DNA from: Methylorubrum extorquens
GTDB taxonomy: Bacteria > Pseudomonadota > Alphaproteobacteria > Rhizobiales > Beijerinckiaceae
DNA: 32,000 nt
Assembly (NCBI GenBank): GCA_900234795.1
Contig: LT962688.1
Coordinates: 1,620,001-1,652,000 of the forward strand
Direction of reading: 5' to 3'
Positions 1 to 32,000 of the stretch are shown here, piece by piece. The notes under the pieces are model-generated. The model worked only from the letters and a program-made list of their open reading frames with translations, was not told the DNA's origin and ran no database searches. The translations under genes were made by a program, and so were the position numbers. The number at the start of each line of letters is the position of its first letter. Positions within the stretch are counted from its first letter, which is position 1.

Positions 1-1065
1 GGTCTGACCGGTTTGGCCCTTGCGGCCTGCTCGCCGGCCGAGACGGCCGTGAACCCGGAGCCGCCCCTCGTCCAAGTGACCGAGGTCGCCCCAAGCTCCG
101 GCGTCGTGTCTCGCTACACCGGCGTGATCAGGGCCCGCACCGAGAGCAACCTTGGCTTCCGGGTAGGAGGCAAGATCTTCGAGCGTCTCGTCGATCCGGG
201 TGACCGCGTGCACCTCGGCCAGCCGTTGATGCGCCTCGACCGGACCGACTTCACCCTCGCCCTCAATGCCGCGCGCGCCTCCGTCGAGGCTGCCCGCGCC
301 CAGATGATCAAGGCCAAGGCCGACGAGGAGCGTAGCCGTAAGCTCGTGGCCGACGGCTGGACCTCGAAGCAGACCTACGACCAGAACAAGGGTGCGGCCG
401 ATGCAGCCATCGCCCAGTTCGCCAATGCCGAAGCCCAGGCCGGCCAGATCGAGAACCAAGCAGGTTACGCCGAGCTCAAGGCCGATGCCGACGGCGTGGT
501 GATGGAGGTTCCCTCCTATCCCGGGGAAGTGGTCGCTGCGGGCCAAACCGTGGTCAGGCTGGCGCGCGACGGGTCTCGGGAGGCGGAGATCTTCTTGCCC
601 GAGGCAAGCCGTGGTCTGGCCAAGGGCGAAGCCAAGGCAACGCTCTATGCCGAGGGCGAAGCAACCTACCCGGCGCGCTTGCGGGAGTTGTCCGCCATTG
701 CCGATCCGGCCACTCGAACTTACCGGGCGCGCTACATCCTTTCGGGTGGTGGTGAAGACGCTTCGCTCGGGGCGACCGTCACCCTGCAGCTCAAATCTCC
801 TGAGGCTGTCCGCACCGCGACGGTCGAGGTGCCCCTCGCCGCCCTGTTCGACCAGGGGCGCGGCACCTCGGTTTGGCGCTATGACGCCGCCAGCGAGACG
901 GTGAAGCCGCAGGCTGTGCAGGTGGCCCGCATGGGCGAGGAGCGCGCCGAAGTCGCCGCCGGCCTCAATCCGGGCGACCGGATCGTGGCTCTTGGCGCCC
1001 ATCTGCTGAAGGCCGATCAGAAGGTGCGCCGAGCGCCCACCAGCATGACGGGGGTGGTGCGATGA
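1..1065 (+). CDS. efflux RND transporter periplasmic adaptor (membrane-fusion) subunit; 5' end probably cut by the window edge
   Basis: ORF 13..1065 reads like an HlyD/MFP-family adaptor, with coiled-coil LNAARASVEAARAQMIKAKADEE and C-terminal GDRIVALG. The frame stays open back to base 1 (GLTG-LALAAC-S, a lipobox-like motif), so the true start lies upstream of the window. Its TGA overlaps the ATG of the next gene (ATGA at 1062-1065). Confidence 0.85.
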   Translation, partial: GLTGLALAACSPAETAVNPEPPLVQVTEVAPSSGVVSRYTGVIRARTESNLGFRVGGKIFERLVDPGDRVHLGQPLMRLDRTDFTLALNAARASVEAARAQMIKAKADEERSRKLVADGWTSKQTYDQNKGAADAAIAQFANAEAQAGQIENQAGYAELKADADGVVMEVPSYPGEVVAAGQTVVRLARDGSREAEIFLPEASRGLAKGEAKATLYAEGEATYPARLRELSAIADPATRTYRARYILSGGGEDASLGATVTLQLKSPEAVRTATVEVPLAALFDQGRGTSVWRYDAASETVKPQAVQVARMGEERAEVAAGLNPGDRIVALGAHLLKADQKVRRAPTSMTGVVR

Positions 1066-4000
1066 GCGGCTTCAACCTTTCGGCGCTCGCCGTCCGCGAG
1101 CGGGCCGTCACCCTGTTCCTGCTGATCGCGCTGACCGGCGCGGGATTCTTCGCTTTCCAGAAGCTCGGACGGGCCGAGGACCCGGCGTTCACGGTCAAGG
1201 TCATGACGGTCTCGGCCGCCTGGCCCGGCGCCACCGCCGAGGAGATGCAGCGCCAGGTCGCCGACCCCCTGGAGAAGCGCCTGCAGGAACTGGTCTACTA
1301 CGACCGTGCCGAGACCACGGTCCGGCCCGGACTCATGGTGACCAAGGTCATCTTCAAGGACAACATGCCGCCGGCGAAACTTCAGTCGGAGTTCTACCAG
1401 ACCCGCAAGAAGCTTTCCGACCAGGCTTCCAGCCTGCCGCGCGGCGTGCTCGGGCCGCTCTTCAACGACGAGTTCTCGGACATCTACTTCGCCCTCTACG
1501 CCGTGCAGGCCAAGGGCCTGCCGCACCGGCAACTGGTCCTGCGCGCCGAGGACCTGCGCCAGCGCCTGCTACGGGTGCCGGGCGTCGAGAAGATTAATAT
1601 CCTCGGTGAGCAGGCCCAGAAGATCTTCGTCGAGATCTCCTACCAGCGCCTCGCCACCCTCGGGATCAACGGCCAGCAGGTCTTGGCCGCGCTCGCCAAC
1701 CAGAACGACGTGACGCCCGCGGGTTTCGTCGAGGCCGAGGGCCCGCGCGTCTACCTGCGACTGGACGGCGCCATCGACGGGCTCGACGCGATCCGCAACC
1801 TGCCCGTGGCCGCCGGCGACCGCAGCCTCAAGCTCGGCGACATCGCCGAGGTGAAGCGCGGCTACGAGGACCCTCGGACCTTCGAGATCCGCAACGACGG
1901 TGAGCCCGCGCTGATGCTCGGCCTCGTGATGAAGCCCGGCTACAACGGCCTCAAGCTCGGCGAGGCGCTCAACGCAGAAGAGGTGGCGATCCACCACGAG
2001 ACGCCCGTCGGCATCACCTTCACCAAGATCACCGACCAGGCGAAGGTCATCGAAGACGCCATCCACGAGTTCATGGTGAAGTTCTTCACCGCGCTCGGCG
2101 TGGTGATCTTCGTGTCCCTCGTCGCGCTTGGCTTCCGCGTCGGCATCGTGGTGGCGCTCGCGGTGCCGCTGACGCTCTCGGCGGTGTTCGTGGTGATGAT
2201 GCTCACCGGCCGCGACTTCGACCGCATCACGCTGGGCGCCCTGATCATCTCGCTCGGGCTCCTGGTCGACGACGCCATCATCGCCATCGAGATGATGGTG
2301 GTGCGCATGGAGGAGGGCTACGACCGCATCGAGGCGGCGACCTATGCCTGGAGCTCGACCGCCGCGCCGATGCTGACGGGCACGCTCGTTACCATCGCCG
2401 GCTTCCTCCCCGTGGGCTTCGCCGCCTCGACGGCGGGCGAGTATGCCGGCAACATCTTCTGGGTGGTCTCGTTCTCGTTGATCATCTCGTGGATCGTGGC
2501 CGTGACCTTCACGCCCTATCTCGGCGTCAAGCTCCTGCCGAACATCAAGAAGGTCGAGGGCGGTCACGACGCCATCTACGCCACGAAGAACTACGAGCGC
2601 CTGCGGCGCGTCGTGCGGATGTCCGTCGACCACAAATGGTGGGCCGCCGGCATCACGGTCGGGCTGTTCGGCCTCGCGGTGGTCGCCATGGGCAAGGTCG
2701 AGCAGCAGTTCTTCCCGAACTCGGAGCGCCCCGAACTCATCGTCGAGGTGACGCTGCCGGCAGGCTCGGCCTTCGCCACCACCGAGTCCAGCGTGAAGCG
2801 GATCGAGGCAGCCGTGCGCGAACTGCCGGAGGCACGCGAGATCACGAGCTATATCGGCCAGGGCATGCCGCGCTTCGTGCTCTCCTTCGACCCCGAACTG
2901 CCCGACCCGGCTTTTGCGCAGATCGTCGTACAGACCGCCGACGCCCATGCTCGGGACGCGCTGCGCGTAAAGGTGCGCGAGCTCGTCGAGGAAGGCCGCT
3001 TTCCCGAAGCCCGCGTGCGGGTGCTGCAGATCGTGTTCGGGCCGCCGGTCCGCTTCCCCGTCGCCTTCCGCGTGGTCGGGCCCGACCTCGACGTGATCCG
3101 CGGCATCGCGGCGGAAGTCGCGGGCGTTATGGCCTCCAACCCGAACATGCGGATGGTTCACCTCGACTGGGGCGACAAGACTCCGAGCCTGCGCCTCGCC
3201 CTGGACCAGGAGCGCCTGCGTCTGATCGGCCTGACCCCGAAGGAGGCCGGCCAGCAGTTGCAGAACTACCTCAACGGCACGCCCGCGACCCAGGTCCGCG
3301 AGAACCTGCGCTCCGTGGATGTCCTCCTGCGCAGCCCCGGTCCCGAGCGGCGCTCACTCGGCGACATCGGCGACCTGACGCTGGCCACGAAAGACGGGCG
3401 CCAAGTCCCGGTGTCCCAGGTCGCGCGGCTGGAAAGCCGTACCGAAGACGCGGTGCTCAAGCGCTACAACCGCGAGAGCTACATCCGCGTCCAGGGCGAT
3501 GTGCTCGACGGCAAGCAACCGCCGGACATTCACGCCCAGGTCTTCCCGCTGCTCGACCCGATCAAGGCCAAGCTGCCGCCGGGTTACCGCATCGACACGG
3601 CCGGCTCGGTCGAGGAGAGCGTGAAGGCGCAGATGTCGCTGGCAGCCGTGTTCCCGGTGATGCTGATCGTCACGCTGACGGTCATCATGATCCAGGTCCG
3701 GTCGTTTTCCGCCATGTTCATGGTGTTCGCGACCGCCCCGCTCGGTCTCGTCGGGGCCGCGCCGACCCTGCTGATCTTCCACCAGCCCTTCGGCTTCAAC
3801 GCGATCCTCGGCCTGATCGCGCTGTCGGGCATCCTGATGCGCAACACCCTGATCCTCGTGGACCAGATCCATCACGATCAGGCGGCGGGCCTCTCCGACT
3901 ACGACGCCATCGTCGAATCGACCGTCCGGCGCGCCAGGCCGGTCATTTTGACGGCGGCGGCCGCGATGCTGGCCTTCATCCCGCTCACCCACTCGGTGTT

Positions 4001-4169
4001 CTGGGGGGCACTGGCCTACGTGCTGATTGGCGGCGTCGGTGTTGGCACGCTGCTCACCCTGCTGTTCCTGCCTGCCCTCTACGCCTTGTGGTTCCGTGTG
4101 ACGCGGGAGCCGCGCCATGCGGAGAGCGCCGCCGGAGCCGACGCGGTGCCGATGCCGGCCGGGACCTGA
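1062..4169 (+). CDS. efflux RND transporter permease subunit (AcrB/AcrD/AcrF family)
   Basis: The 1035-aa ORF has typical RND architecture: an N-terminal TM helix, two large periplasmic loops and two 5-6 TM bundles (e.g. GALIISLGLLVDDAIIAIE and GLIALSGILMRNTLILVDQ). It is translationally coupled to the adaptor gene. Confidence 0.92.
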   Translation: MSGFNLSALAVRERAVTLFLLIALTGAGFFAFQKLGRAEDPAFTVKVMTVSAAWPGATAEEMQRQVADPLEKRLQELVYYDRAETTVRPGLMVTKVIFKDNMPPAKLQSEFYQTRKKLSDQASSLPRGVLGPLFNDEFSDIYFALYAVQAKGLPHRQLVLRAEDLRQRLLRVPGVEKINILGEQAQKIFVEISYQRLATLGINGQQVLAALANQNDVTPAGFVEAEGPRVYLRLDGAIDGLDAIRNLPVAAGDRSLKLGDIAEVKRGYEDPRTFEIRNDGEPALMLGLVMKPGYNGLKLGEALNAEEVAIHHETPVGITFTKITDQAKVIEDAIHEFMVKFFTALGVVIFVSLVALGFRVGIVVALAVPLTLSAVFVVMMLTGRDFDRITLGALIISLGLLVDDAIIAIEMMVVRMEEGYDRIEAATYAWSSTAAPMLTGTLVTIAGFLPVGFAASTAGEYAGNIFWVVSFSLIISWIVAVTFTPYLGVKLLPNIKKVEGGHDAIYATKNYERLRRVVRMSVDHKWWAAGITVGLFGLAVVAMGKVEQQFFPNSERPELIVEVTLPAGSAFATTESSVKRIEAAVRELPEAREITSYIGQGMPRFVLSFDPELPDPAFAQIVVQTADAHARDALRVKVRELVEEGRFPEARVRVLQIVFGPPVRFPVAFRVVGPDLDVIRGIAAEVAGVMASNPNMRMVHLDWGDKTPSLRLALDQERLRLIGLTPKEAGQQLQNYLNGTPATQVRENLRSVDVLLRSPGPERRSLGDIGDLTLATKDGRQVPVSQVARLESRTEDAVLKRYNRESYIRVQGDVLDGKQPPDIHAQVFPLLDPIKAKLPPGYRIDTAGSVEESVKAQMSLAAVFPVMLIVTLTVIMIQVRSFSAMFMVFATAPLGLVGAAPTLLIFHQPFGFNAILGLIALSGILMRNTLILVDQIHHDQAAGLSDYDAIVESTVRRARPVILTAAAAMLAFIPLTHSVFWGALAYVLIGGVGVGTLLTLLFLPALYALWFRVTREPRHAESAAGADAVPMPAGT

Positions 4170-4408
4170 GGCTCGAATGACCGCCATCGATGTCCCGTCC
4201 CTAGGACATCCCGAGATCGCGCGTTTGTCCTCCGAACGTGCGGTGCATCGACCGGCCTGCGCTCCTGCCCTCCTCGCGCAAGTCGGTCGACAGCCTCTGC
4301 GAAAGGTATGGGACGGTCGGACGCCCCAGAGTCTCCATCCCCAGCCGACGCTTTAATACATGACTGCTCGCATCTATATGGATCCCAGCAACGGCGGAGG
4401 ACGATACG

Positions 4409-4951
4409 ATGCCGAGAGTTTCGCAGGAGCAAGCCAAGCTCAACCGCCAACGGGTCGTGGAGGTCGCATCCTCCCTGTTCCGGGAGCGCGGCCTGAACGG
4501 CATCGGCGTCGTGGACATCATGGCGGCCGCCGGCCTGACCCATGGCGGCTTCTACGGCCAGTTCGCCAACAAGGATGCCCTCGCGGCCGAGGCGTTCGAC
4601 GCCGCGATCGGCAACGAATACCGGGCGAACCTCGACACCTTCATCGAGAACTATCTCTCCCTCGGGCACGTCCGGACACCTGGGAGAGGCTGCCCCGTCG
4701 CGGCCCTGGTGAACGATATCGGGCGCGAGCCTGCCGGAAGTGCCTTGCGGTCGCGGTTCACCCACGCGGTCAAGGGGCTCGCCAGCCTCATCGCGGACAG
4801 ACTGCCCAAGAGCGCGAAGGAGCGTCGTAGGCAGCGGTCGCTCGTGGCGCTGTCAACCATGGTCGGGGCCGTGGTGCTGGCGCGGGGCGTCGACGACGAG
4901 GCGCTGGCTGACGAACTCCTCCAGGCAGCGCGCTCGACCATCACCCCCTGA
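4409..4951 (+). CDS. TetR/AcrR family transcriptional regulator
   Basis: The 180-aa ORF has an N-terminal TetR HTH signature (RQRVVEVASSLFRERGLNGIGVVDIMAAAGLTHGGFYGQFANKDAL). GGAGG sits about 8 nt upstream of the ATG. The gene lies between two efflux loci. Confidence 0.88.
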   Translation: MPRVSQEQAKLNRQRVVEVASSLFRERGLNGIGVVDIMAAAGLTHGGFYGQFANKDALAAEAFDAAIGNEYRANLDTFIENYLSLGHVRTPGRGCPVAALVNDIGREPAGSALRSRFTHAVKGLASLIADRLPKSAKERRRQRSLVALSTMVGAVVLARGVDDEALADELLQAARSTITP

Positions 4952-5127
4952 GACGTTTCGGGGCCGCGCGTTTCGAAGCCGGTTCGACGTTCCGAATCTG
5001 GGTCTCCGAAGGGAAGTTGGGGCTGATGTCCAAGCAAGCCGAGGCCGGCGCGGATGGCCCGAGCTTCCACCTGCGTTCCGTGGACGGCCAGTAGCGCGTC
5101 GTCGGACTATCTTGGACTGGAGCCCTC

Positions 5128-6533
5128 ATGGACGTCCGCACACGCCGCCTCCTCGAGGCCCCTATCGTGCCGACCCTGGCCCGGATGGCCGCGCCCAACA
5201 TCCTGGTGATGGCGGTCCAGACCTCCGTCGGCCTTATCGAAACGTATTTCGTGTCGATGCTCGGGACGGACGCATTGGCCGGGATGGCCCTCGTCTTTCC
5301 GGTGGTGATGCTGGTCCAGATGCTCTCCGCCGGCGGGATGGGGGGCGCCATCCAATCGGCGGTCTCCCGCACGCTGGGTGCGGACCGGCAGGCGGACGCC
5401 GGAGTTCTGGCGTGGCACGCGATGGTGCTCGGCCTGGGGCTCGGCATTGCGACGAGCCTCGTGCCCTTCCGTTCGGGCCAACCCTCTACGCGGCGATGGG
5501 CGGGACCGGAGGCTCGCTCCGAGCGGCGACCACCTACGCGTCCATCGTGTTCGGCGGGGCGGTCCTGATCTGGCTGTTCAACGCGCTGTCGGCCGTGATC
5601 CGCGGCACAGGCAACATGGTGCTTCCGGCCATCGTCACCTGCGTCGGGGCCGTCGTGCTGATCCCGCTCTCGCCCGCGCTCATCTTCGGCTGGGGGTCGT
5701 TCCCCGAGTTCGGCGTCGCGGGCGGTGGCGTGGCGTTTGCGGCCTACTACGCCGCGGGGTCCGCGGTCTTCGCCGCCTACATCTGGTCCGGCCGCAGCGT
5801 CCTCCGCCCGAGCCGGCGCTTGCCCGCTCTCTCTTGGGGGCCGTCACGGGAGATCCTGCGCATCGGGGTTCTTTCGGGCATCGCCAGCATGACCTCGAAC
5901 GTCACAGTCATCGTGGCGACCGGCTTCGCCGGGGCGGCGGGGCCGGCGGCCGTGGCCGGCTACGGGACCGGCGCCCGGCTCGAATACCTCCTGGTCCCCC
6001 TCGTGTTCGGTCTCGGCTCTCCCATCGCAGCCATCGTCGGTACGGCCCTGGGAGCGGGCGACCACGCACGAGCCCGCCAGGCGGCCCTGACGGGTGCCCT
6101 CATCGCCGGTGTCCTGACGGAGTTCATCGGGGTCGCGGCCGCCCTGCACCCGGCCGCGTGGCTCGGCCTGTTTGGAGACGATCCGGCGATGCTCGCAACG
6201 GGCTCGCTCTACCTGCGAATCGTCGGCCCGTTCTACGGATTTTTCGGCTTCGGGCTGGCCCTGTACTTCGCCGCTCAGGGTGCAGGACGTGTCGGCTGGC
6301 CGCTCGCCGCCAGCCTCCTTCGGATGGGGGTCGCATTGGGCGGTGCTTGGCTCGCCTTGGCGCTCGGGCTCGGCCTCGCCGGAACATTCATTGCCATGTC
6401 GGCCGGGTTCGTCACCATGGGGCTCGTCAACGCGGCGGCCTTCGCGACGGGCAAGATGTTCCCGAGCGACGCCCTCGGCCCACCCTCCGTAACTTCCGCA
6501 ACGCTAGCTCCAGCCGCGGGCGTGAGACGCTGA
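5128..6533 (+). pseudogene. MATE family efflux transporter, reading frame broken by an apparent 1-nt deletion near 5463
   Basis: The N-terminal 112 aa or so (frame of ORF 5128..5568: RLLEAPIVPTLARMAAPNILVMAVQTSVGLIETYFVSMLGTDALAGMALVFP) and the remainder (frame of ORF 4740..6533 from ALPFGPTLYAAMGG onward) are both MATE-like. They join only if one base is added at 5461-5465 (gtg|gcc). This is either a real pseudogene or an assembly error. Confidence 0.75.
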
Positions 6534-6606: not shown

Positions 6607-7053
6607 ATGCTGCTCGCGACGGTCTTCGTCGGGGCGGCAGGAATGAAGCTTGCGGCGTCCGAATTCGAGACCATGAACTTCGCACGCTTCGGCTACGCGC
6701 CATGGTTCATGTACCTGGCGGGTCTCGCCGAAATGCTGGGTGCGGTCCTGCTCTGGGTCCGGGGACATGTCGCGTACGGTGCGCTGCTCCTTGCTGTCTT
6801 GGCTGTCTTGGCTGTCTTGATGGCGGGTGGTGCAGTCAGCCACCTGCGCGTCGGCGACCCGGTGATGCTGGCTGCCCCGGCGCTCGGCCTGATGGCGCTA
6901 CTGTGCGGTATCGCCGTTGCGCACCGGCACGAACTCCCCTTCCCGCGACGCCGAACGAGGGCGGAAGATTCGGATACGTTCGAAGCCCAAGCAAGCTGCT
7001 TTGGCCGAACTCACGCCGACAGGGCCATCACGGCGGCACGAAAGGCGCCCTGA
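6607..7053 (+). CDS. DoxX-like small membrane protein
   Basis: The 148-aa ORF has 3-4 predicted hydrophobic helices and a DoxX-like opening (FVGAAGMKLAA...FGYAPWFMYLAGLAEMLGAVLL). No alternative upstream start exists because a stop lies at 6574-6576. The 3' end overlaps the convergent MarR gene by 43 nt. Confidence 0.55.
   Translation: MLLATVFVGAAGMKLAASEFETMNFARFGYAPWFMYLAGLAEMLGAVLLWVRGHVAYGALLLAVLAVLAVLMAGGAVSHLRVGDPVMLAAPALGLMALLCGIAVAHRHELPFPRRRTRAEDSDTFEAQASCFGRTHADRAITAARKAP
6793..6819 (+). repeat. perfect 9-bp tandem repeat (gctgtcttg x3) inside the DoxX-like CDS, encoding (LAV)3
   Basis: Read directly: gctgtcttg gctgtcttg gctgtcttg. It is in frame with the CDS. Confidence 0.85.
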
Positions 7054-24456: not shown

Positions 24457-24570
24457 TTACCGGTCCCACCCCTTCAGGTCGCAGAGCGTCATGAAGTCGT
24501 GGATCGTGATCAGATCAGCATCAAGCAGAGCCAGGGCTTCATCACGGCTCTTGATCGCTTCGGCGTTCAT
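24457..24570 (-). CDS. possible 37-aa small protein (MNAEAIKSRDEALALLDADLITIHDFMTLCDLKGWDR)
   Basis: The ATG at 24570 has GGAAAGG about 9 nt upstream. The stop is followed on the minus strand by the hairpin GGCCGGAG-tgtcat-CTCCGGCC plus GTTTG (24426-24447). Local GC is lower than the surroundings. I recognised no family, so the call is weak. Confidence 0.3.
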   Translation of the reverse strand: MNAEAIKSRDEALALLDADLITIHDFMTLCDLKGWDR

Positions 24571-24889
24571 GGAATGCGCCTTTCCAGTGTCGTGTTTTGA
24601 AGAACGACAAGCTAAAGCTTTCGTTCCTTTCGTCTGGAGGAGCATCTCGCGTGCCAGCGGCAACATCGTCGGCGAACCGCTTCGAGGCGCATCGCTCCGG
24701 AGGTCGGAATCCAAGCGATGCGCCGCGTTCTCGGGCCTGCCTCGGCCTCGGTCGGGTCAGCAGGTACCTAAGACGAGGGTTCGACGCGTCCTCGCGTTGA
24801 ACCCGTTCGGTCTTCGGCGAGCGCGGTCTGCTCGGGCCTCCTGTTCCTGCATCGTCCCGAAAGCCGGTTGCCACCTTTCGGGACGACGC

Positions 24890-25567
24890 TTAGCCCTCCC
24901 GTCCGCCGCCCATCGTCGCCTGCATCCGCGAGAGCTGAGCGATGTGCCGCTGGATCAGCGGGATCGCGCCGGCCGCGATGCGGCGCAGGCCCGGATCGTC
25001 GCCGGCCTGGGCGTAGGAGCCGTGGATGTTGAGGGCCTCCTGATGGCCCTGAAGCGAGGCGTTGACGAACATCGCGTCGTATTCGGGACCGGGCTGCATC
25101 CCGGAGAGCTGCGACAGGATCTGAGCCTTCTGCTCATCCGTCGTCATGCCGCCGGGACCGCGCCCACCGGGTACACCCAGAACGCCGCCGACCGCACCGA
25201 CGGTCGCCCCCGCGACGCCGCCCGCCACCGCCAGCGGCGCCTCGACCAAACCGCCGACGAGGCCGGCCGGACCGGCGGGCGCGCCTGCCATCGGCGCGCC
25301 CGCACCCAGATACGGGTCCAGCTTGCGGGCGAGGTTGACCTGCTCGGTCACCTCGGCCCGGCTGAAGGCTTTGACGCGCGGATTGCGGGTCTTGGCGTGG
25401 GCATCGCGCGCCGTGTTCTCGAGGAACAGGCCGCCCTTCGTCGCCATGGCGAGGTAGACCGGCGCCGGCATGGCACCGGCCGGCGCCGGTTGCGCCAGGG
25501 CGGTCCGGGTGACGGCCAGGGCCGCCGTTGCCGTCAGCAGGGTCGTCAGAAAATCGCGCCGATGCAT
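24890..25567 (-). CDS. DUF4142 domain-containing exported protein (Tat-type signal)
   Basis: The signal is MHRRDFLTTLLTATAALAV. Two DUF4142-like half-domains (GGLFLENTARDAHAKTRNPRVKAFSRAEVTEQ and YDAMFVNASLQGHQEAL...IPLIQRHIAQL) are separated by a Gly/Ala/Pro-rich linker. Confidence 0.72.
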   Translation of the reverse strand: MHRRDFLTTLLTATAALAVTRTALAQPAPAGAMPAPVYLAMATKGGLFLENTARDAHAKTRNPRVKAFSRAEVTEQVNLARKLDPYLGAGAPMAGAPAGPAGLVGGLVEAPLAVAGGVAGATVGAVGGVLGVPGGRGPGGMTTDEQKAQILSQLSGMQPGPEYDAMFVNASLQGHQEALNIHGSYAQAGDDPGLRRIAAGAIPLIQRHIAQLSRMQATMGGGREG

Positions 25568-25734
25568 GGTCTCGGGTCTCCCGGTCTGAAAACGATGCTC
25601 GGGCGCCGGTTTGCTTGTGCGGTGCCGGAGTCTGACGGGCGAAACCTTCGCGAAATCAGCAATGTTCCTGCCGTTCCAGGGGTGGCTTCAAACGAAGACG
25701 CTCGGGCGATCCCGACCGGGTTTGCTGCCGGGAT

Positions 25735-26235
25735 TCAGGGGCCGATCGAGGGACGCAAACGGGCCATGCAATGCACGTCGGCGAAGATGCCGTTGCGAAA
25801 CGAGGCCGCCTTGTGCGTCCCCTCGATGGTGAAGCCGAACTTTTCGTAGAGGGCGATGGCGCGGGTATTGTCGGTGAAGACCGTCATCTCGATGCGCACA
25901 ATATTGATCCAGTTGTCGGCCGTATCGATCACCGCGGCGAGAAGCCGCGAGCCGATGCCGTGTCCGGCGAAATCCTCATGCACGGCGATCCAGAACTCCG
26001 CCGCATGTGCCCGCCGCCCGTAGAAGGGGCGCAGGGCCGCTGCCCCGACGACGCGCTCGCCCTGCTGCGCGGCGAGGTGCAGATCCCGCGGCGAGCGGGG
26101 CTCGGCCCACTTCTTCACGGCCTCGAACGATTCGTAGGGGAGCGCCAGCGTTCCGAAACGGAAGGCGGGCTGGTTGTAGATCTCGAACAGATCCGGCGCG
26201 TCGTCCTCGCGCATGGCCCGTATCGTCACATCCAT
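25735..26235 (-). CDS. GNAT family N-acetyltransferase
   Basis: The start at 26235 (MDVTIRAMREDDAPDLFEIY) is preferred. The acetyl-CoA binding motif is AVHEDFAGHGIGSRLL, and ALYEKFGF is also present. Length is 166 aa. The upstream 65 codons of the track ORF have no support. Confidence 0.85.
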   Translation of the reverse strand: MDVTIRAMREDDAPDLFEIYNQPAFRFGTLALPYESFEAVKKWAEPRSPRDLHLAAQQGERVVGAAALRPFYGRRAHAAEFWIAVHEDFAGHGIGSRLLAAVIDTADNWINIVRIEMTVFTDNTRAIALYEKFGFTIEGTHKAASFRNGIFADVHCMARLRPSIGP

Positions 26236-26524: not shown

Positions 26525-26803
26525 TCACGTCCAGTCGAAGCGCAGCGTCTCGCGGAAGGCGAAGCGCTCGATGTGGCGCACGACCACGTCGCGCAGGTCG
26601 GGCAGGCTGGCGGCGTCCTGTGCGGTCAGGTCGATCGTCAGGGTCTCGGCGCTGGCACTCAGCCGCGTCTCACCGAGCGGCAGGGCAATCCGGGCATCGG
26701 TCGGGCTGAACTCGGTCTCGAACCGGTGGGCCCAGTGTTTGCAGAGCTGCTGGAGGTAGCGGCTGGCATGCGGGGTGCCGACGACGGCACGGCTCTCGGT
26801 CAT
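26525..26803 (-). CDS. DUF2218 domain-containing protein (last gene of the metallophore operon)
   Basis: MTESRAVVGTPHASRYLQQLCKHWAHRFETEF...VVVRHIERFAFRETLRFDW matches the DUF2218 pattern (ASRYL.QLCKH.AH). AGGAG lies upstream of the ATG at 26803. The gap to the AsbF-like gene is only 28 nt. Confidence 0.75.
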   Translation of the reverse strand: MTESRAVVGTPHASRYLQQLCKHWAHRFETEFSPTDARIALPLGETRLSASAETLTIDLTAQDAASLPDLRDVVVRHIERFAFRETLRFDWT

Positions 26804-26831: not shown

Positions 26832-27668
26832 TCAGCGCGCGGCGTGGAGGGCTCCCGCCCCGCGGCGGCCGGCAGTGGCACTGCGCAGGCGGAAAAGGTC
26901 GGTGGGCAGGACCGAGAAGCTGGCCTCGCCGAACCATTCGAGCGAGCCTTCCGCCTGCGGCGGCAGCGTCTTCAGGAAAGCGGCGTAATCCAGCGCGCCC
27001 TCGAACAGGCCGGTCATGCCCTCGCGCCGTCCGGCCGCGGCATAGACGTTGGCCGGCTCGAACACCGACAGGTCGGCGCGGCTGCGCACGTTCTTGAGGT
27101 GATAGTAGTCGATATGCGGGGAGAGCCGGGCGTGGGCCGCGAGCGGGTCGTCGCCGCCTTCCCAGACGTGGAGCGTGTCGAAATTGACCCGGAGGTTCGG
27201 GTGATCGACCGCATCCAGCAGGTCGAGGAGCGAGGCGGTGGTGTCGGCGAGCGTGCCGGGATGCGTCTCCACCACGAGGCGCAGGCCCTGGTCGGCGAGT
27301 TGGCCCGCCGCCATCCGCAGGCGCTGGGCGACATGGGCGCGCTCGTCGAGCGAGGCGGCCGCACTGCCCTTGGTCCCGGCGAAGGTGCGCAGCCGCGGCG
27401 CCCCCCAGCTCCCGGCGAGCCGGGCGAGTTCGGCCGTCCGCTCGGTCAGGATTTCCAGCGGCGCGTCGAGCGGCAGGTAGTCGCTCAGCATCGGCACGCG
27501 CAGGCCGTAGGCGGCGAGCCATTCAGCGTGGTCGCCGGGGCCGAGATTGCGGGCATGCACGCCCCACAATTCGATGCCGTCGAAGCCGTGGCCGCGGGCG
27601 AAGCGGGCGAGTTCGCCGATCGACACGAGATGGTGGCGAAAGCTGATGGTGCAGAGTGCGATTCTCAT
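26832..27668 (-). CDS. asbF: AsbF-like 3-dehydroshikimate dehydratase (xylose-isomerase-like TIM barrel)
   Basis: The 278-aa protein is co-linear with my recollection of B. anthracis AsbF. Shared blocks are LCTISFRH, GIELWGVHA.NL, RTFAGTKGSA, ETHPGTLADT, DHPNLRVNFD, HVWE, YYHLKN, FEPANVYAAAGRREGM, LFEG and SLEWFG. Its ATG overlaps the upstream stop (ATGA at 27665-27668). Confidence 0.8.
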   Translation of the reverse strand: MRIALCTISFRHHLVSIGELARFARGHGFDGIELWGVHARNLGPGDHAEWLAAYGLRVPMLSDYLPLDAPLEILTERTAELARLAGSWGAPRLRTFAGTKGSAAASLDERAHVAQRLRMAAGQLADQGLRLVVETHPGTLADTTASLLDLLDAVDHPNLRVNFDTLHVWEGGDDPLAAHARLSPHIDYYHLKNVRSRADLSVFEPANVYAAAGRREGMTGLFEGALDYAAFLKTLPPQAEGSLEWFGEASFSVLPTDLFRLRSATAGRRGAGALHAAR

Positions 27669-28972
27669 GCGGAGAGCCTTTCGCGTGACGGGAGCGCCTG
27701 TCCGAGATCCGGGCTGTTCTGCCGCCACGCCGCGTAGGCCGCGGCGAGCTGCCGCTTGATCGCGAATTCCTGCGCGTCGAGCGCATCGAGCCGCGCGAGG
27801 ACGGAGGCGACCTCCCCCGTCTCCCCCGTCCGGGCGAGCTTGAGGACGGCGTAGTGCAGGGCGGTGAGGCCGTTCACCAGGGCCTCGATCTCGTCGCAGA
27901 TCCGCTGGAACTCCGGGTCCGGCCAGCGCAGGGCCCGCCAGAAGAAGGCGAAGCCGTGCTCGTAGGCCCATTTGCGGATGGTGATGACCGGCAGTTCGCG
28001 CAGCGCCTCGCCGACATCCGTCAGCTTCAGCCCGCCCCGCCCCTCGGCATGGGCGAGCACGATGGCGCGCGCGGCATCGATCAGCGGGTTGGCGTCGAAT
28101 CGGAAGCAGGCGTCGAAGAAGGCGGCGAGATTCGTGTCCGCCGGCGGATGGGCCCGCGAGGGCTCGAAGCGGTAGCCGCCGGCGACGCTGGGCTGGCGGA
28201 TGGCGTTCAGCATCCGCTCGCGCTCGATCACGCCCTCCCAGCGGAAGTCGGGGTCGCGCACTTGCCAGAAGCCGGGATCGTCGCCGAGCGAGACGAGGAG
28301 GTAGTGCGGGAAGGGGTTCTGGTTGAACTTGTTCTCGCGCTCGGGGAGGTGGAACATATCGAGCATCACCATGATGCACGTGTCCGGCTCCCGCCGCTCT
28401 AGGAGGTCGAGCAGGGTGGCGACGTTCTCGTCCTTCGAACGGGAATGGTCGTACCAGGAGACGAGCGGCACGCCGTAGAGCCGTTCGAACCAGTAGCGGA
28501 ACGACTCGTGGTCCATCGCGTCCGAGTGGTAGGCGAGCCGCGAGCCGTCGGTGATGGCGAACTCGGCGTCCCAGATCAGGGCATAGAACGGGCGGTGGTC
28601 GATGCCCCGCATCTTCAGCCCGTCGCAGACGCAGCTGACGAAGCAGTGGATCTTCAGGTCGTAGGACATCGCGCCGTGGACACCCTCGGAGGGCGTCTCG
28701 GACTCGGCGACCGGTGCGGCCGGCTCCGCGCCCGGCGCCAGGAGCCGGGCGAGGTCGGCGACGGTGGAGACGTCCTGCCGGTTGATCGCTTCTTCTGGCA
28801 CCGACACCCCATGCGTCAGTTCCAGCGCCAGGATGAGCTGAAGCAACTGGACGGAATCGAGGTAGAGATCCTCGTTCAGCCGTGCGTCCGGCCCGAACCC
28901 ATCGAGATGGGGATGCTGCATCTCCTCGCGCAGCACCGTGCCGATGGCCGCGATCAGCGTCTCGTTGCTCAC
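27665..28972 (-). CDS. aryl/acyl carrier protein (AsbD-like) continuous in frame with an AsbE/BtrH-like carrier-protein:amine acyltransferase domain
   Basis: The GTG start at 28972 overlaps the TGA of the ligase gene (GTGA). The carrier-protein motif is EDLYLDSVQLLQLILALE, which holds the phosphopantetheinyl Ser. An Ala/Pro/Glu linker follows, then MSYDLKIHCFVSCVCDGLKMRG... from 28669, a 334-aa BtrH_N/AsbE-like domain. No stop codon separates the two parts. The internal ATG at 28669 is an alternative start for a separate AsbE-like protein. Confidence 0.7.
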   Translation of the reverse strand: MSNETLIAAIGTVLREEMQHPHLDGFGPDARLNEDLYLDSVQLLQLILALELTHGVSVPEEAINRQDVSTVADLARLLAPGAEPAAPVAESETPSEGVHGAMSYDLKIHCFVSCVCDGLKMRGIDHRPFYALIWDAEFAITDGSRLAYHSDAMDHESFRYWFERLYGVPLVSWYDHSRSKDENVATLLDLLERREPDTCIMVMLDMFHLPERENKFNQNPFPHYLLVSLGDDPGFWQVRDPDFRWEGVIERERMLNAIRQPSVAGGYRFEPSRAHPPADTNLAAFFDACFRFDANPLIDAARAIVLAHAEGRGGLKLTDVGEALRELPVITIRKWAYEHGFAFFWRALRWPDPEFQRICDEIEALVNGLTALHYAVLKLARTGETGEVASVLARLDALDAQEFAIKRQLAAAYAAWRQNSPDLGQALPSRERLSA

Positions 28973-30235
28973 GCCACCGCCTCCAGCGCGCCGTCCCGGT
29001 ACTGCGCAGCGACCGCGCGACGAGAAATCTTGCCGTTGGCCTCGCGCGGGATCGCGCCGACCTGCACCGCCTCGACCGGCACCTGATGGCCGGCGAGCCA
29101 GCGGCGGCACCAGTCCTGCAGCGCCCGGGGCGGCACGGGAGCGTCGGCGCTGAACAGCAGCGTCACCCGCTCGCCCGCAAACGGATCGGGCCGGGCGAAG
29201 GCCACGGCGTCGGTGATGCCGGGCATGGCCATCACCACGTCCTCGACCTCGCCGGGATAGACGTTGAGGCCCGAGACGTTGATCGTGTCGTCCTTGCGCG
29301 CGACGAAGATCAGCATGCCGTCGGGCGCCAGGTAGCCGAGATCGGCGGTGTGGATCGCCCCGCCCTCCCCCTCGACCACGATTTCCGCCGGGGCCTCGGC
29401 GCCGGTCCCCGCCCGGACGCGGTGGTGCGGCAGCGGCCGGCCCATGGCGTCGGCGCGGCGCAGATCCGGGTTGATCGCGATACAGCCGGCTTCCGAGCAG
29501 CCGTATTGCTGGAACAGGTGGGTGACGCGCCCGCGGATGGCGGAAAACCAGGGTGCGGGCAGGAGCGTGCCCGAGACCATCGCCGCGTGGAGGGTCTCGC
29601 CCTCGGGCATCAGCCGGGCCAGCGTGTGCAGCATGGCGGGTGCGGTGTAGAGCACCGGCCGCTCGATCTCGCGCAGGCGGCGCAGGAGGTATTTCGGGTT
29701 GGTGGTGTCCACGATCACCGGCACGCAGCCGCGGCGCAGACCCACGAACAGGCCGCAGATCAGCCCGTAGGAATGGGTGATCGGGCAGGCGATGACCGGT
29801 GTCATCCCGTCCGGCTCGGTGAAGGCGCCGACATAGCTCTCGATCTCGCGCTCGACCGCGCTCCAGGGGGCGGGCGATGCATTTCGGCTCGCCTGTGGTG
29901 CCGGAACTCATCTGGAAAAGCTCGCCCTCCCCCGGGACCGGCGGGGCGGCGCCGTCCAGGGGCTCGCCCTCCAGGCTGTCGAGGAACAGGCGGTGGCAGC
30001 CGGCGCGCTGGGCGAGCCGGCGCGCGCCCTCGTCTGGCAGGGCCGGATGGATCGGCAGCAGGCTCGCGCCGCTGCGGCGGGCGGCGAGGATGAAGGCAAG
30101 ACCCTGGGCGGTGTCGCGGAAGCGCGCGGCGACGCGCTCGCCGCTGCCGCCGCGCAGGGCCGCCGTATCCGCGACGCGCCGGATGGCGGCCTCCATCGCG
30201 TCCGCTGGGATGGTGCGGCCGTCGATCTCGATCAT
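28969..30235 (-). pseudogene. AsbC-like short aryl-AMP ligase (adenylate-forming enzyme); frame broken once at a G5/C5 run near 29866-29870
   Basis: The N-terminal part is in the frame of the 1435-aa ORF (MIEIDGRTIP...LFQMSSGTTGEPKCIARP). The remainder is in the frame of ORF 28969..29805 (WSAVEREIESYVGAF...ITHSYGL...QQYGCSEAG...HTADLGY...RKDDTINVSGLNVYPGEVE...REANGKISRR). The two join across ctccagggggcggg. No stop lies between this ORF and the upstream IucA/IucC region. Confidence 0.72.
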
Positions 30236-31951
30236 GCAGGCTCCGGAAAGGGCGTCAGGGGAGGAAGGGAACAGGGCGTTGGGCGCCAGCAGGCTGCCGC
30301 CCGCCTCGCCGAGCCCGAGCTTGCGCGACAGCAGCGCCTCGACCCGCAGCCGGGGCGCCTCGGCAGCGAGGCGGGCGAAACGCGCCTCCAGCCCATGCTC
30401 CGCCGCGTGGTGCCGCAGACGCTGGCCGAGGCGGCGCCAGAACCCTGCCTCGTCGAGGCCGTGCCGGCGCTGGAGCAGGCGGGTGATCTCGCAGAGGTTG
30501 AAGACGAACAGGCTGTCGGTGACGAGTTCGGCGAGCGTCGCGGCCGAGCGCATGGCGTGGAAGCGGTCGTCCGCCGGCCCGGCATGGGCCGGGTCGATCG
30601 CCCCGAAATCCGGCACGCGCTCCGGGCTCGTCACGAAGTCGGGCGCGTATTCCGCGCTCTCGTGGAAGTCGCGCAGGATCACCCGATCCGGCCAGCCGTC
30701 GCGGTGGACCAGAATCATGTTCTGGCCGTGCGCCTCCAGGGCGACGCCGTGGCCCGCGAGCAGGTGCCAGACCGGCAGCACCGCGACCGTGACCAAGCGG
30801 TCGAGCCAAGCGTCGCGGCCGTAGCGTTCGAGCCAGGGCGCGATGAAGGGGCTCCCGTCCGCCTCGCACACGGCCAGCGCGTTGAAGGGCACGGCCGCTT
30901 CGCCGGGAACGAGACGCGGGCTCTCCCGCCAGATCGCGGCGAGCTGCCCGGCGAGCGGACCGTCCCGGTCGGCGAGCGCGGCAGCGTATTCGCGCAGCAC
31001 CGTCACGCGGCCCTGCAGCGCGGGATCGGCGGCGACGAGGCCGGCGAGCCAGTCGGACAGGGCCGGGCCGGTCAGCACGAAATGCGGGTCGAGGATGCGC
31101 AGGCTCGAGGTCGAGACGACGGCAAGCGCCAGCTTCACGCTCGCGGCGGACGGGTCGTCGAGATTGTGCAGCGTGCGCAGGGACTGGCTCGCGACATAGC
31201 GCGGGCCGGCGGTGCCGAGCGCGACGGCGCGGCCCTCCGCCAGCCAGGGGGCGCAAAGCCTCCTCTTCGAGCCGGCGCATCTGCCAGGGATGGACCGGCA
31301 GCAGCGTGTGCGTGTCGATGGAATGGCCGGCTGCGGCGAGGCGGCTGGCGAGGACGTCCCCCTCCCCGCCGAGTTCGGCCCGCCAGAACCCATCCTCCGG
31401 GCCCGGCAGCGCGAGGGCGATGGTGTCCCGACGGACAGCCAGCCATTCGAGGCGGAACGGCGCGGCGGCTTCGGGCCCGTAGCGGTGGTGATCCTCCAGA
31501 GAGAAGCCGGTGCGCGCCTTGAAGCTCGGATGGTAGGGATGGCCCTCCCACAAAGCCGCATCGAGCGCGGCGAAGGGCAGCGCGCGGCGCTCCGGCGGCG
31601 ACAGGTTTTGGCTATTCCAGCGGCAGAGTTCGACCGTCTGCCGAAGCTCGGCCCGCAGCCGCGTCCGGTGCTCCGGGGCGGCGGGAAGGGCTTCCACGAG
31701 GGTGGCGAGGTCGGCCTGCACCCAGGCGCCCTCTTCGCCTGCCATCTCGACCGAACCGGAATCGAGGCGGGGGCGGCCGAAGGGGGGCCGAGAGTACCGG
31801 CCGCGCGAAAGCGATGGGAGCCGACGCGCCATGCGATCCGACCGGAGACGTTGGGGGCCGGCTCGCGCTCGGCCAGCCCTTCGAACAGGACGGCTTCGGC
31901 CAACTGGCGCAGGACACGCGCTTCGGGCTGCTCCAAGGTTTCGGGAAGCAT
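30236..31951 (-). pseudogene. IucA/IucC-family NRPS-independent siderophore (NIS) synthetase (AsbA/AsbB-like); two apparent frameshifts at G/C homopolymers
   Basis: The start ATG at 31951 lies 4 nt after the upstream stop. The opening MLPETLEQPEARVLRQLAEAVLFEGL is in frame A down to about 31790. The frame of ORF 30255..31832 then carries PFGRPRLD...WEGHPYHPSFKAR...LLPVHPWQ. Frame A resumes from about 31250 with PWLAEGRAVALG...SLRTL...VKLALAVVSTSSLRIL...LEAHGQNMILV...RDFHES...APNALF. The shifts coincide with G6 at 31782-31787 and G5 at 31247-31251. Confidence 0.75.
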
Positions 31952-31955
31952 GGCC

Positions 31956-32000
31956 TCAGGACGCGAGGGCATGGCCGGCCTCGCCCCGAGCCGCCCGAAG
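31956..32000 (-). CDS. 3' end of a further minus-strand CDS that continues beyond the window (unknown product; by asb synteny possibly a second NIS synthetase)
   Basis: An open frame runs from base 32000 down to a TGA at 31956-31958 (...LRAARGEAGHALAS*), 4 nt before the ATG at 31951. It is too short to identify. Confidence 0.3.
   Translation of the reverse strand, partial: LRAARGEAGHALAS

Follow-up and report, generated by a model that had tools for sequence, protein, structure and literature searches.

A 32,000-nt stretch of the Methylorubrum extorquens genome (GenBank assembly GCA_900234795.1, contig LT962688.1, positions 1,620,001 to 1,652,000; hereafter the window, to which all coordinates refer) contains, at 28969..31972 of the minus strand, what is very probably an orthologue of mllBC, a natural fusion of an asbB-type synthetase for siderophores made independently of nonribosomal peptide synthetases (NIS synthetase) with an asbC-type aryl-adenylase, lying in a metallophore gene cluster of the methylolanthanin/rhodopetrobactin type in a Methylorubrum zatmanii-like strain. 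Judging from the orthologous sequences, the stop-free, in-frame junction between the two parts is the native state of the clade. The window copy itself is broken by three frameshifts, and the insertions behind them probably arose locally, towards the end of the window, through faulty assembly or consensus calling rather than as real inactivating mutations.

The fusion architecture is already known and has been published as MllBC. The MllBC protein (META1p4133) of the methylolanthanin cluster of M. extorquens AM1 was named in 2024 in PNAS, where the mllBC fusion was described as previously unseen in characterised homologues (PMC11317620). That mllBC is a fusion is also stated in a 2026 preprint, which finds the gene essential for metallophore production in AM1, discusses 'the MllBC and MllDE fusions', proposes progressive fusion for the family, and links the fusions to missing pathway intermediates; in R. 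palustris TIE-1, by the same account, AsbB and AsbC are separate (PMC13370498). The initial annotation of the window had proposed a fusion enzyme of unusual architecture. As a description of the gene the proposal stands, but the claim to novelty does not, given the naming of mllBC in 2024 (PMC11317620) and its discussion as a fusion in 2026 (PMC13370498).

A stop-free junction between the two parts

We denote by f1 the minus-strand frame phased with position 31999, and by f0 and f2 the other two. Frame f1 is open from 31999 to 27668 with zero stops, and at the junction it reads ...SRKLGLGEAGGSLLAPNALF, the final F of which lies at 30271-30269, followed by PSSPDALSGAC (30268-30236) and by MIEIDGRT..., with its ATG at 30235-30233. 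In tblastn comparisons, residues 250-575 of the M. tarhaniae AsbB protein aligned to 31243-30263 and residues 1-123 of AsbC to 30235-29867, in one frame. Frame reading and alignment thus bear out the initial observation that the IucA/IucC synthetase and the AsbC-like adenylase share one frame, with 11 stop-free codons (30236-30268) between them. Both stops that had been pointed out for the remaining frames, one at 30255-30257 and one at 30232-30234, are present. Two features mark the junction:

30236..30268, minus strand: linker of 11 codons, PSSPDALSGAC, stop-free in f1; relatives have the 10-residue PSPDALSG(A/D)C
30260..30265: TCC-TCC (coding strand; GGA on the plus strand), an in-frame duplication of 3 nt private to the window, by which the linker gains a Ser and which is absent from every near-identical assembly

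Survey of orthologous loci

One genome per species was scanned for orthologous loci, with the intact downstream gene as the anchor; 80 loci were returned, 78 of them with both parts. In 15 of the 78 the AsbB frame is stop-free through to the AsbC stop, while 63 have separate genes, 54 of these with a 4-bp ATGA overlap. The fused set consists of the five closest relatives (Methylobacterium sp. Leaf123 and R2-1, and Methylorubrum thiocyanatum, rhodesianum and podarium), six other Methylobacteriaceae and four Shinella. Methylobacterium sp. Leaf123, for example, has an intact 997-aa open reading frame (ORF) reading ...APNPLFPSPDALSGDCMIEIDGRT..., and the linker measures 9-10 residues in all fused loci and is variable.

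Genomes nearly identical to the window were located through its exact MllG and MllF proteins, and comprise M. zatmanii CP021054.1, several genomes of the M. extorquens group, and Logan assemblies. At least ten near-identical assemblies have a single gene call of 993-999 aa each, the called gene being 998 aa in M. zatmanii CP021054.1, M. extorquens strains and several Logan assemblies; precomputed matches to IucA_IucC, FhuF, AMP-binding and AMP-binding_C are on record for nine of them, L085 being the exception. The M. zatmanii protein WP_056498822.1 belongs to a 90% cluster of 46 members, among them the AM1 (ACS41786.1) and PA1 (ABY32135.1) proteins, and M. zatmanii, PA1 and AM1 share the junction LFPSPDALSGACMIEIDGRT without a difference. 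The in-frame junction goes far beyond chance; it recurs in 15 species-level genomes and in all the near-identical assemblies that were examined. The comparison with orthologues therefore supports a covalent AsbB-AsbC fusion, a single long BC-type ORF being conserved in the window's own clade.

That the stop at the junction is missing because of a sequencing indel, with asbB and asbC truly separate here, is extremely improbable. The more distant orthologues of M. tarhaniae and M. oryzisoli are indeed separate, with an ATGA overlap; the alternative-frame tail of the window, ...PPLTPFPEPA, resembles theirs and ends at the TGA inside ATGA; and other indels exist in the gene. The same in-frame junction is nevertheless found in all near-identical assemblies and in the five closest species, within intact ORFs of 997-998 aa, and the sole difference of the window at the junction is the in-frame duplication of 3 nt. 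A net +1 indel hiding an ATGA-overlapped stop had been deduced from M. tarhaniae (L001) and M. oryzisoli (L002) only, and was overturned by the 80-locus survey. The related suggestion in the initial annotation, that an indel in ttcccttcctcccctga conceals the true stop, finds no support, as the junction frame is the native one.

Fusions of this kind extend beyond the clade. An exhaustive search of representative sequences recovered the fused architecture in at least five clusters at 50% identity, one of them a 1180-aa form with a longer linker. A first, word-indexed homology search had returned 120 stand-alone IucC matches of 556-598 aa and no fusion. The absence of fusions inferred from it was wrong: the 998-aa proteins are present in the collection by exact look-up, yet were not returned, and negatives of the word-indexed protein search are uninformative for these fused proteins. 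In the representative library, P0171 (1180 aa), P0146, P0149 and P0144 are divergent IucA_IucC, FhuF and AMP-binding fusions from other lineages, one of which has a linker longer by about 25 residues and also a longer adenylase.

Identity of the two enzyme parts

Both PF04183 and PF06276 match the f1 piece of the window as well as the intact protein, as is found for type C NIS synthetases, and residues 17-565 of the intact protein match B. anthracis AsbB (PDB 3TO3; E = 4e-86). For the C-terminal half, the matches are to ANL adenylating enzymes. PF00501 and PF13193 were found there, with the motif SSGTTGEPK in f1 and ...REANGKISRR in f2; we take the latter to be the C-terminal catalytic Lys motif of the ANL family. 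A model of the 998-aa protein, built with AlphaFold2 from the single sequence, had a mean predicted local distance difference test (pLDDT) score of 35 and is unusable for the linker or for domain packing.

Frame structure of the window copy

In the window, an uninterrupted ORF of ~990-1000 codons is replaced by a gene in which the coding signal, followed by tblastn and by a frame plot of GC content at third codon positions (GC3), switches frame: f1 from 31972 to ~31784, f0 to ~31252, f1 to ~29871, and f2 to the stop at 28969-28971. The parts are as follows:

28969..31972, minus strand: mllBC orthologue (asbB-asbC fusion gene), broken by three frameshifts (tblastn and DNA comparison with near-identical assemblies)
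31784..31972, minus strand: N-terminal segment of MllB in f1, with start ATG at 31972; gene calling in L084 gives an identical start
31782..31787: G6 run on the plus strand, private +2 (G4 in all relatives), frameshift 1 (DNA comparison)
31252..31781, minus strand: middle segment of MllB (~residues 65-240), readable in f0 only (GC3 frame plot; tblastn, 69% identity to M. tarhaniae AsbB residues 70-240)
31247..31251: G5 run on the plus strand, private +1, frameshift 2, back to f1 (DNA comparison)
30269..31246, minus strand: C-terminal part of MllB (end of IucA_IucC and FhuF-like domain) in f1, ending ...APNALF (Pfam PF04183 and PF06276; 81% identity to M. tarhaniae AsbB)
29871..30235, minus strand: N-terminal 122 residues of MllC (AsbC-like adenylase) in f1, including the P-loop SSGTTGEPK (frame reading, tblastn)
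29866..29870: G5 run on the plus strand, private +1, frameshift 3 (DNA comparison)
28969..29865, minus strand: C-terminal ~298 residues of MllC, readable in f2 only, stop at 28969-28971 (Pfam AMP-binding and AMP-binding_C; tblastn, 84% identity)

The f0 piece alone gave no Pfam match, yet it has the identity to AsbB residues 70-240 given above. When four G's are removed, a 999-aa mllBC ORF results, which differs from the M. zatmanii protein WP_056498822.1 by a single substitution and an additional Ser (identity at 997 of 998 residues). The repaired protein is identical to the AM1 protein ACS41786.1 at 952 of 991 residues, and to the PA1 protein ABY32135.1 at 963 of 998. The homopolymer indels that the initial annotation had reported elsewhere in the gene are accordingly present, at ~31786 (+2), ~31251 (+1) and ~29870 (+1), every one of them a lengthened G4 run of the plus strand. 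The window copy as written cannot be translated into a functional enzyme of ~110 kDa, the product for which the initial annotation proposed a test, as three frameshifts interrupt it.

The window insertions total 7 nt, so the start frame of mllBC continues into the frame of the next gene, mllDE, and an ORF of 1435 aa spans 27665-31972 on the minus strand. This 1435-codon ORF joining mllBC to mllDE is an artefact, brought about by a stop-free off-frame in DNA of 68-73% GC together with the net insertion of 7 nt; an exact look-up of the 1435-aa product in public collections found none on record.

Private insertions: error or mutation

Over 10,533 nt, not one mismatch separates the window from the Logan assemblies L094 and L096, and over 5.2-6.2 kb none separates it from L097 and L098. 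The same comparison reveals four insertions, all within mllBC: +G at 29870, +GGA at 30263, +G at 31251 and +GG at 31786. The GGA at 30263 is in frame and converts the linker from PSPD to PSSPD. From CP021054.1 the window (580-32000) differs by ~26 substitutions and, again, by these four insertions; it also has a 1-nt deletion at 5463 and an extra copy of a 9-nt repeat at 6793. Error is favoured over pseudogene decay because there are four indels and zero substitutions. Two metagenome pattern scans for the expanded alleles gave no match in the first case and two wild-type matches in the second, which is weak evidence.

The distribution of the insertions is less readily accommodated by a simple error, and three observations weigh against it. 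AGGGG sites are altered at 4 of 6 positions in mllBC and at 0 of 21 elsewhere; all three expanded G-runs fall in mllBC, which has 13 of the 80 G-runs of the compared segment (hypergeometric p ~0.0035); and the 1-nt deletion in a MATE-family efflux gene described below would suit a noisy assembly as well as a frameshift-accumulating strain. A context-specific base-calling error at AGGGG or CCAGGGG fails as a general cause, as 21 such sites outside mllBC are unaltered, and uniform random error is rejected by the clustering of the insertions. Since the clustering is not random, a local cause is needed; the best fit would be, for example, thin coverage or the end of a contig in the final 2.2 kb of the window.

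Alternatively, the frameshifts may be real, and mllBC a recently inactivated pseudogene in a strain without the metallophore, a natural or laboratory 'cheater'. We consider this somewhat unlikely. The indels are confined to one gene, production depends on mllBC, a second gene (MATE) likewise carries a frameshift, and frameshift remodelling of the cluster has a precedent in the mllF frameshifts of AM1 and M. aminovorans (PMC13370498). Four indels against zero substitutions over 10.5 kb are, however, very unlikely under neutral decay; one frameshift suffices to inactivate the gene, with no selection for three more; and the allele was not found in the other public assemblies or metagenomes searched. 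All the changes are, moreover, homopolymer or short-repeat insertions near the window end, typical of consensus errors.

The MATE-family efflux gene lies at 5110-6530 on the plus strand, and is split over two frames by the 1-nt deletion at 5463 (CTCGT[C]GCC). The deletion is seen relative to CP021054.1 and two other genomes, and the gene is intact at 468 aa in CP021054.1 and L104. This is the only frame-breaking difference outside mllBC. Upstream of the broken gene, window 1-4948 (plus strand) encodes an RND efflux operon (a HlyD-type adaptor and a 1035-aa AcrB-type pump) and then a TetR regulator. The intergenic segment 6793-6819 is a perfect 9-nt tandem repeat, GCTGTCTTG, in three copies, one more than in CP021054.1 and two more than in two other strains.

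Evolution of the boundary and the internal start

In a neighbour-joining tree of the adenylase part, the fused Shinella are nested in Rhizobiaceae with separate genes, and both states occur within Methylobacteriaceae. By this tree the junction has switched state three times or more, and fusion arose independently at least twice (in Methylobacteriaceae and in Shinella). From the F codon to the ATG there are 30 nt in the fused relatives versus 32 nt in the separate-gene M. tarhaniae; as read from the alignments, what separates the fused state from the ATGA-overlap state is a slight difference in length that shifts the frame, located in the variable tail following ...PNALF.

A possible ribosome-binding site has been retained at the adenylase start:

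30241..30244, minus strand: GGAG Shine-Dalgarno (SD)-like core, 5 nt upstream of the adenylase ATG (sequence reading)

In 14 of 15 fused loci and in 29 of 40 separate-gene loci, the adenylase ATG has a GGAG-type core 3-11 nt upstream of it, compared to 9% at random in-gene positions, counts in which the loci are not phylogenetically independent and the GGA/GGAG codons also encode linker Gly. Such retention would fit an adenylase whose translation can still begin internally.

Two points count against regarding the fusion protein as the chief product. A single ~110-kDa polypeptide is predicted from the gene, here and in the published work read, and the retained SD and ATG could mean that the adenylase is largely made on its own. 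Accordingly, it might be supposed that the adenylase is mainly made separately from the internal SD and ATG, and that the fusion is a near-neutral by-product of losing the overlapping stop; we think this somewhat unlikely. In its favour, the GGAG-type core is kept in nearly all fused loci although the linker residues vary, the repeated changes of junction state suggest a low cost in both directions, and the linker is short and poorly conserved. Ribosomes on the B part cannot terminate, however, so that all MllB emerges as fusion, and fusion has been maintained throughout a genus-level clade and occurs in five or more divergent clusters. The motif may also be kept for the sake of the protein, as GGA/GGAG codons give Gly, a typical linker residue, and published genetics handle mllBC as one gene. 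A broader proposal joins three elements: the asbB/asbC boundary would be an evolutionary toggle, flipped repeatedly between translationally coupled separate genes and covalent fusion by slight changes in tail length; cells would make both MllBC and, from the internal SD and ATG, free MllC; and the strain might carry a true triple-frameshifted, non-producing allele. Taken jointly, we consider these quite unlikely.

Cluster context

The genes following mllBC are in the expected order:

27665..28972, minus strand: mllDE (aryl carrier domain fused to a DUF6005/AsbE-like transferase), 435 aa, intact (Pfam PP-binding and DUF6005; gene calls in L084)
26832..27668, minus strand: mllF (AsbF-like TIM-barrel 3-dehydroshikimate dehydratase), 278 aa, intact, N-terminus MRIALCTISF... 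(Pfam AP_endonuc_2)
26525..26803, minus strand: mllG (DUF2218), 92 aa
25735..26235, minus strand: mllH (GNAT acetyltransferase), 166 aa
24890..25567, minus strand: mllJ (DUF4142), 225 aa

The order mllBC-DE-F-G-H-J matches Table 1 of PMC11317620. The gene mllA would lie past the window end; it is immediately upstream of mllBC in near-identical assemblies. The exact MllF protein of the window is also encoded in CP021054.1 and in Logan assemblies. The start of mllDE and the stop of mllBC share 4 nt (28969-28972). The mllDE/mllF boundary (27665-27668) and the mllBC/mllDE boundary are both 4-bp start/stop overlaps, a coupling device that is lost at the fused B/C boundary. A scan of 28800-32000 for promoters and terminators found none. 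A 452-aa ORF at 24491-25849 (plus strand), antisense to mllJ and mllH and with no Pfam match, is probably a spurious high-GC ORF.

Comparison with known systems and proposed function

The closest known proteins are MllBC of AM1 and its homologue in PA1, a rhodopetrobactin-producing strain. They share with the window the domain order IucA_IucC, FhuF-like, AMP-binding and AMP-binding_C, the same neighbours (mllDE, F, G, H and J), and ~95-96% identity to the repaired protein; they differ in that the window has the extra linker Ser and the three frameshifting G insertions. The mllF gene of the window is intact as in PA1, whereas it is frameshifted in AM1 and M. aminovorans (PMC13370498). The rhodopetrobactin cluster of Rhodopseudomonas palustris TIE-1 is homologous, including GNAT, DUF2218 and an AsbDE fusion, but its AsbB and AsbC homologues are encoded by separate genes that overlap by 4 bp (ATGA); the Rhodopseudomonas loci L069 and L070 were recovered in our survey. 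The AsbB and AsbC proteins of B. anthracis, of the petrobactin pathway, are homologous as well and by analogy would perform the same two steps, NIS condensation and aryl adenylation with carrier loading. In Bacillus, in contrast, AsbB and AsbC are two separate genes and proteins, as are AsbD and AsbE, and the polyamine of the mll system is homospermidine, not spermidine as in the Bacillus petrobactin pathway (PMC13370498).

A NIS synthetase fused to another enzyme of the same pathway is also known in DfoC of Erwinia amylovora (PDB 5O7O), to which the match covers chain residues 325-747 of 787 only. The fusion partner in DfoC, presumably an acyltransferase, is N-terminal, and there is no adenylase.

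By the petrobactin pathway and mll genetics, the N-terminal half of MllBC would carry out the second NIS condensation, of a polyamine or aryl-polyamine onto a citryl intermediate, and the C-terminal half would adenylate an aryl acid and load it onto the carrier domain of MllDE. Of two candidate aryl acids, 3,4-dihydroxybenzoate and 4-hydroxybenzoate, the intact mllF leads us to expect the former. The analogy with PA1, for which it is reported, suggests a 3,4-dihydroxybenzoate product (rhodopetrobactin-type) and not one of the methylolanthanin type. The fusion would exchange translational coupling for a fixed 1:1 stoichiometry and proximity, and free adenylase may also arise by internal initiation, since the SD motif and the ATG are retained at the adenylase start.

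Annotation of the window copy as a pseudogene or as a giant fusion is unwarranted without read support, as the frameshifts and the 1435-aa ORF are probably artefacts. To the literature on the fusion our analysis makes small additions, namely at least two origins with easy reversal, and the survival of an internal ribosome-binding site in fused genes, which poses the question of whether one product is made or two. The fusion bears on the assembly of petrobactin-family metallophores, including the lanthanide chelator methylolanthanin: with the condensing enzyme tied to the aryl-activating enzyme, their ratio would be fixed and intermediates may be channelled.

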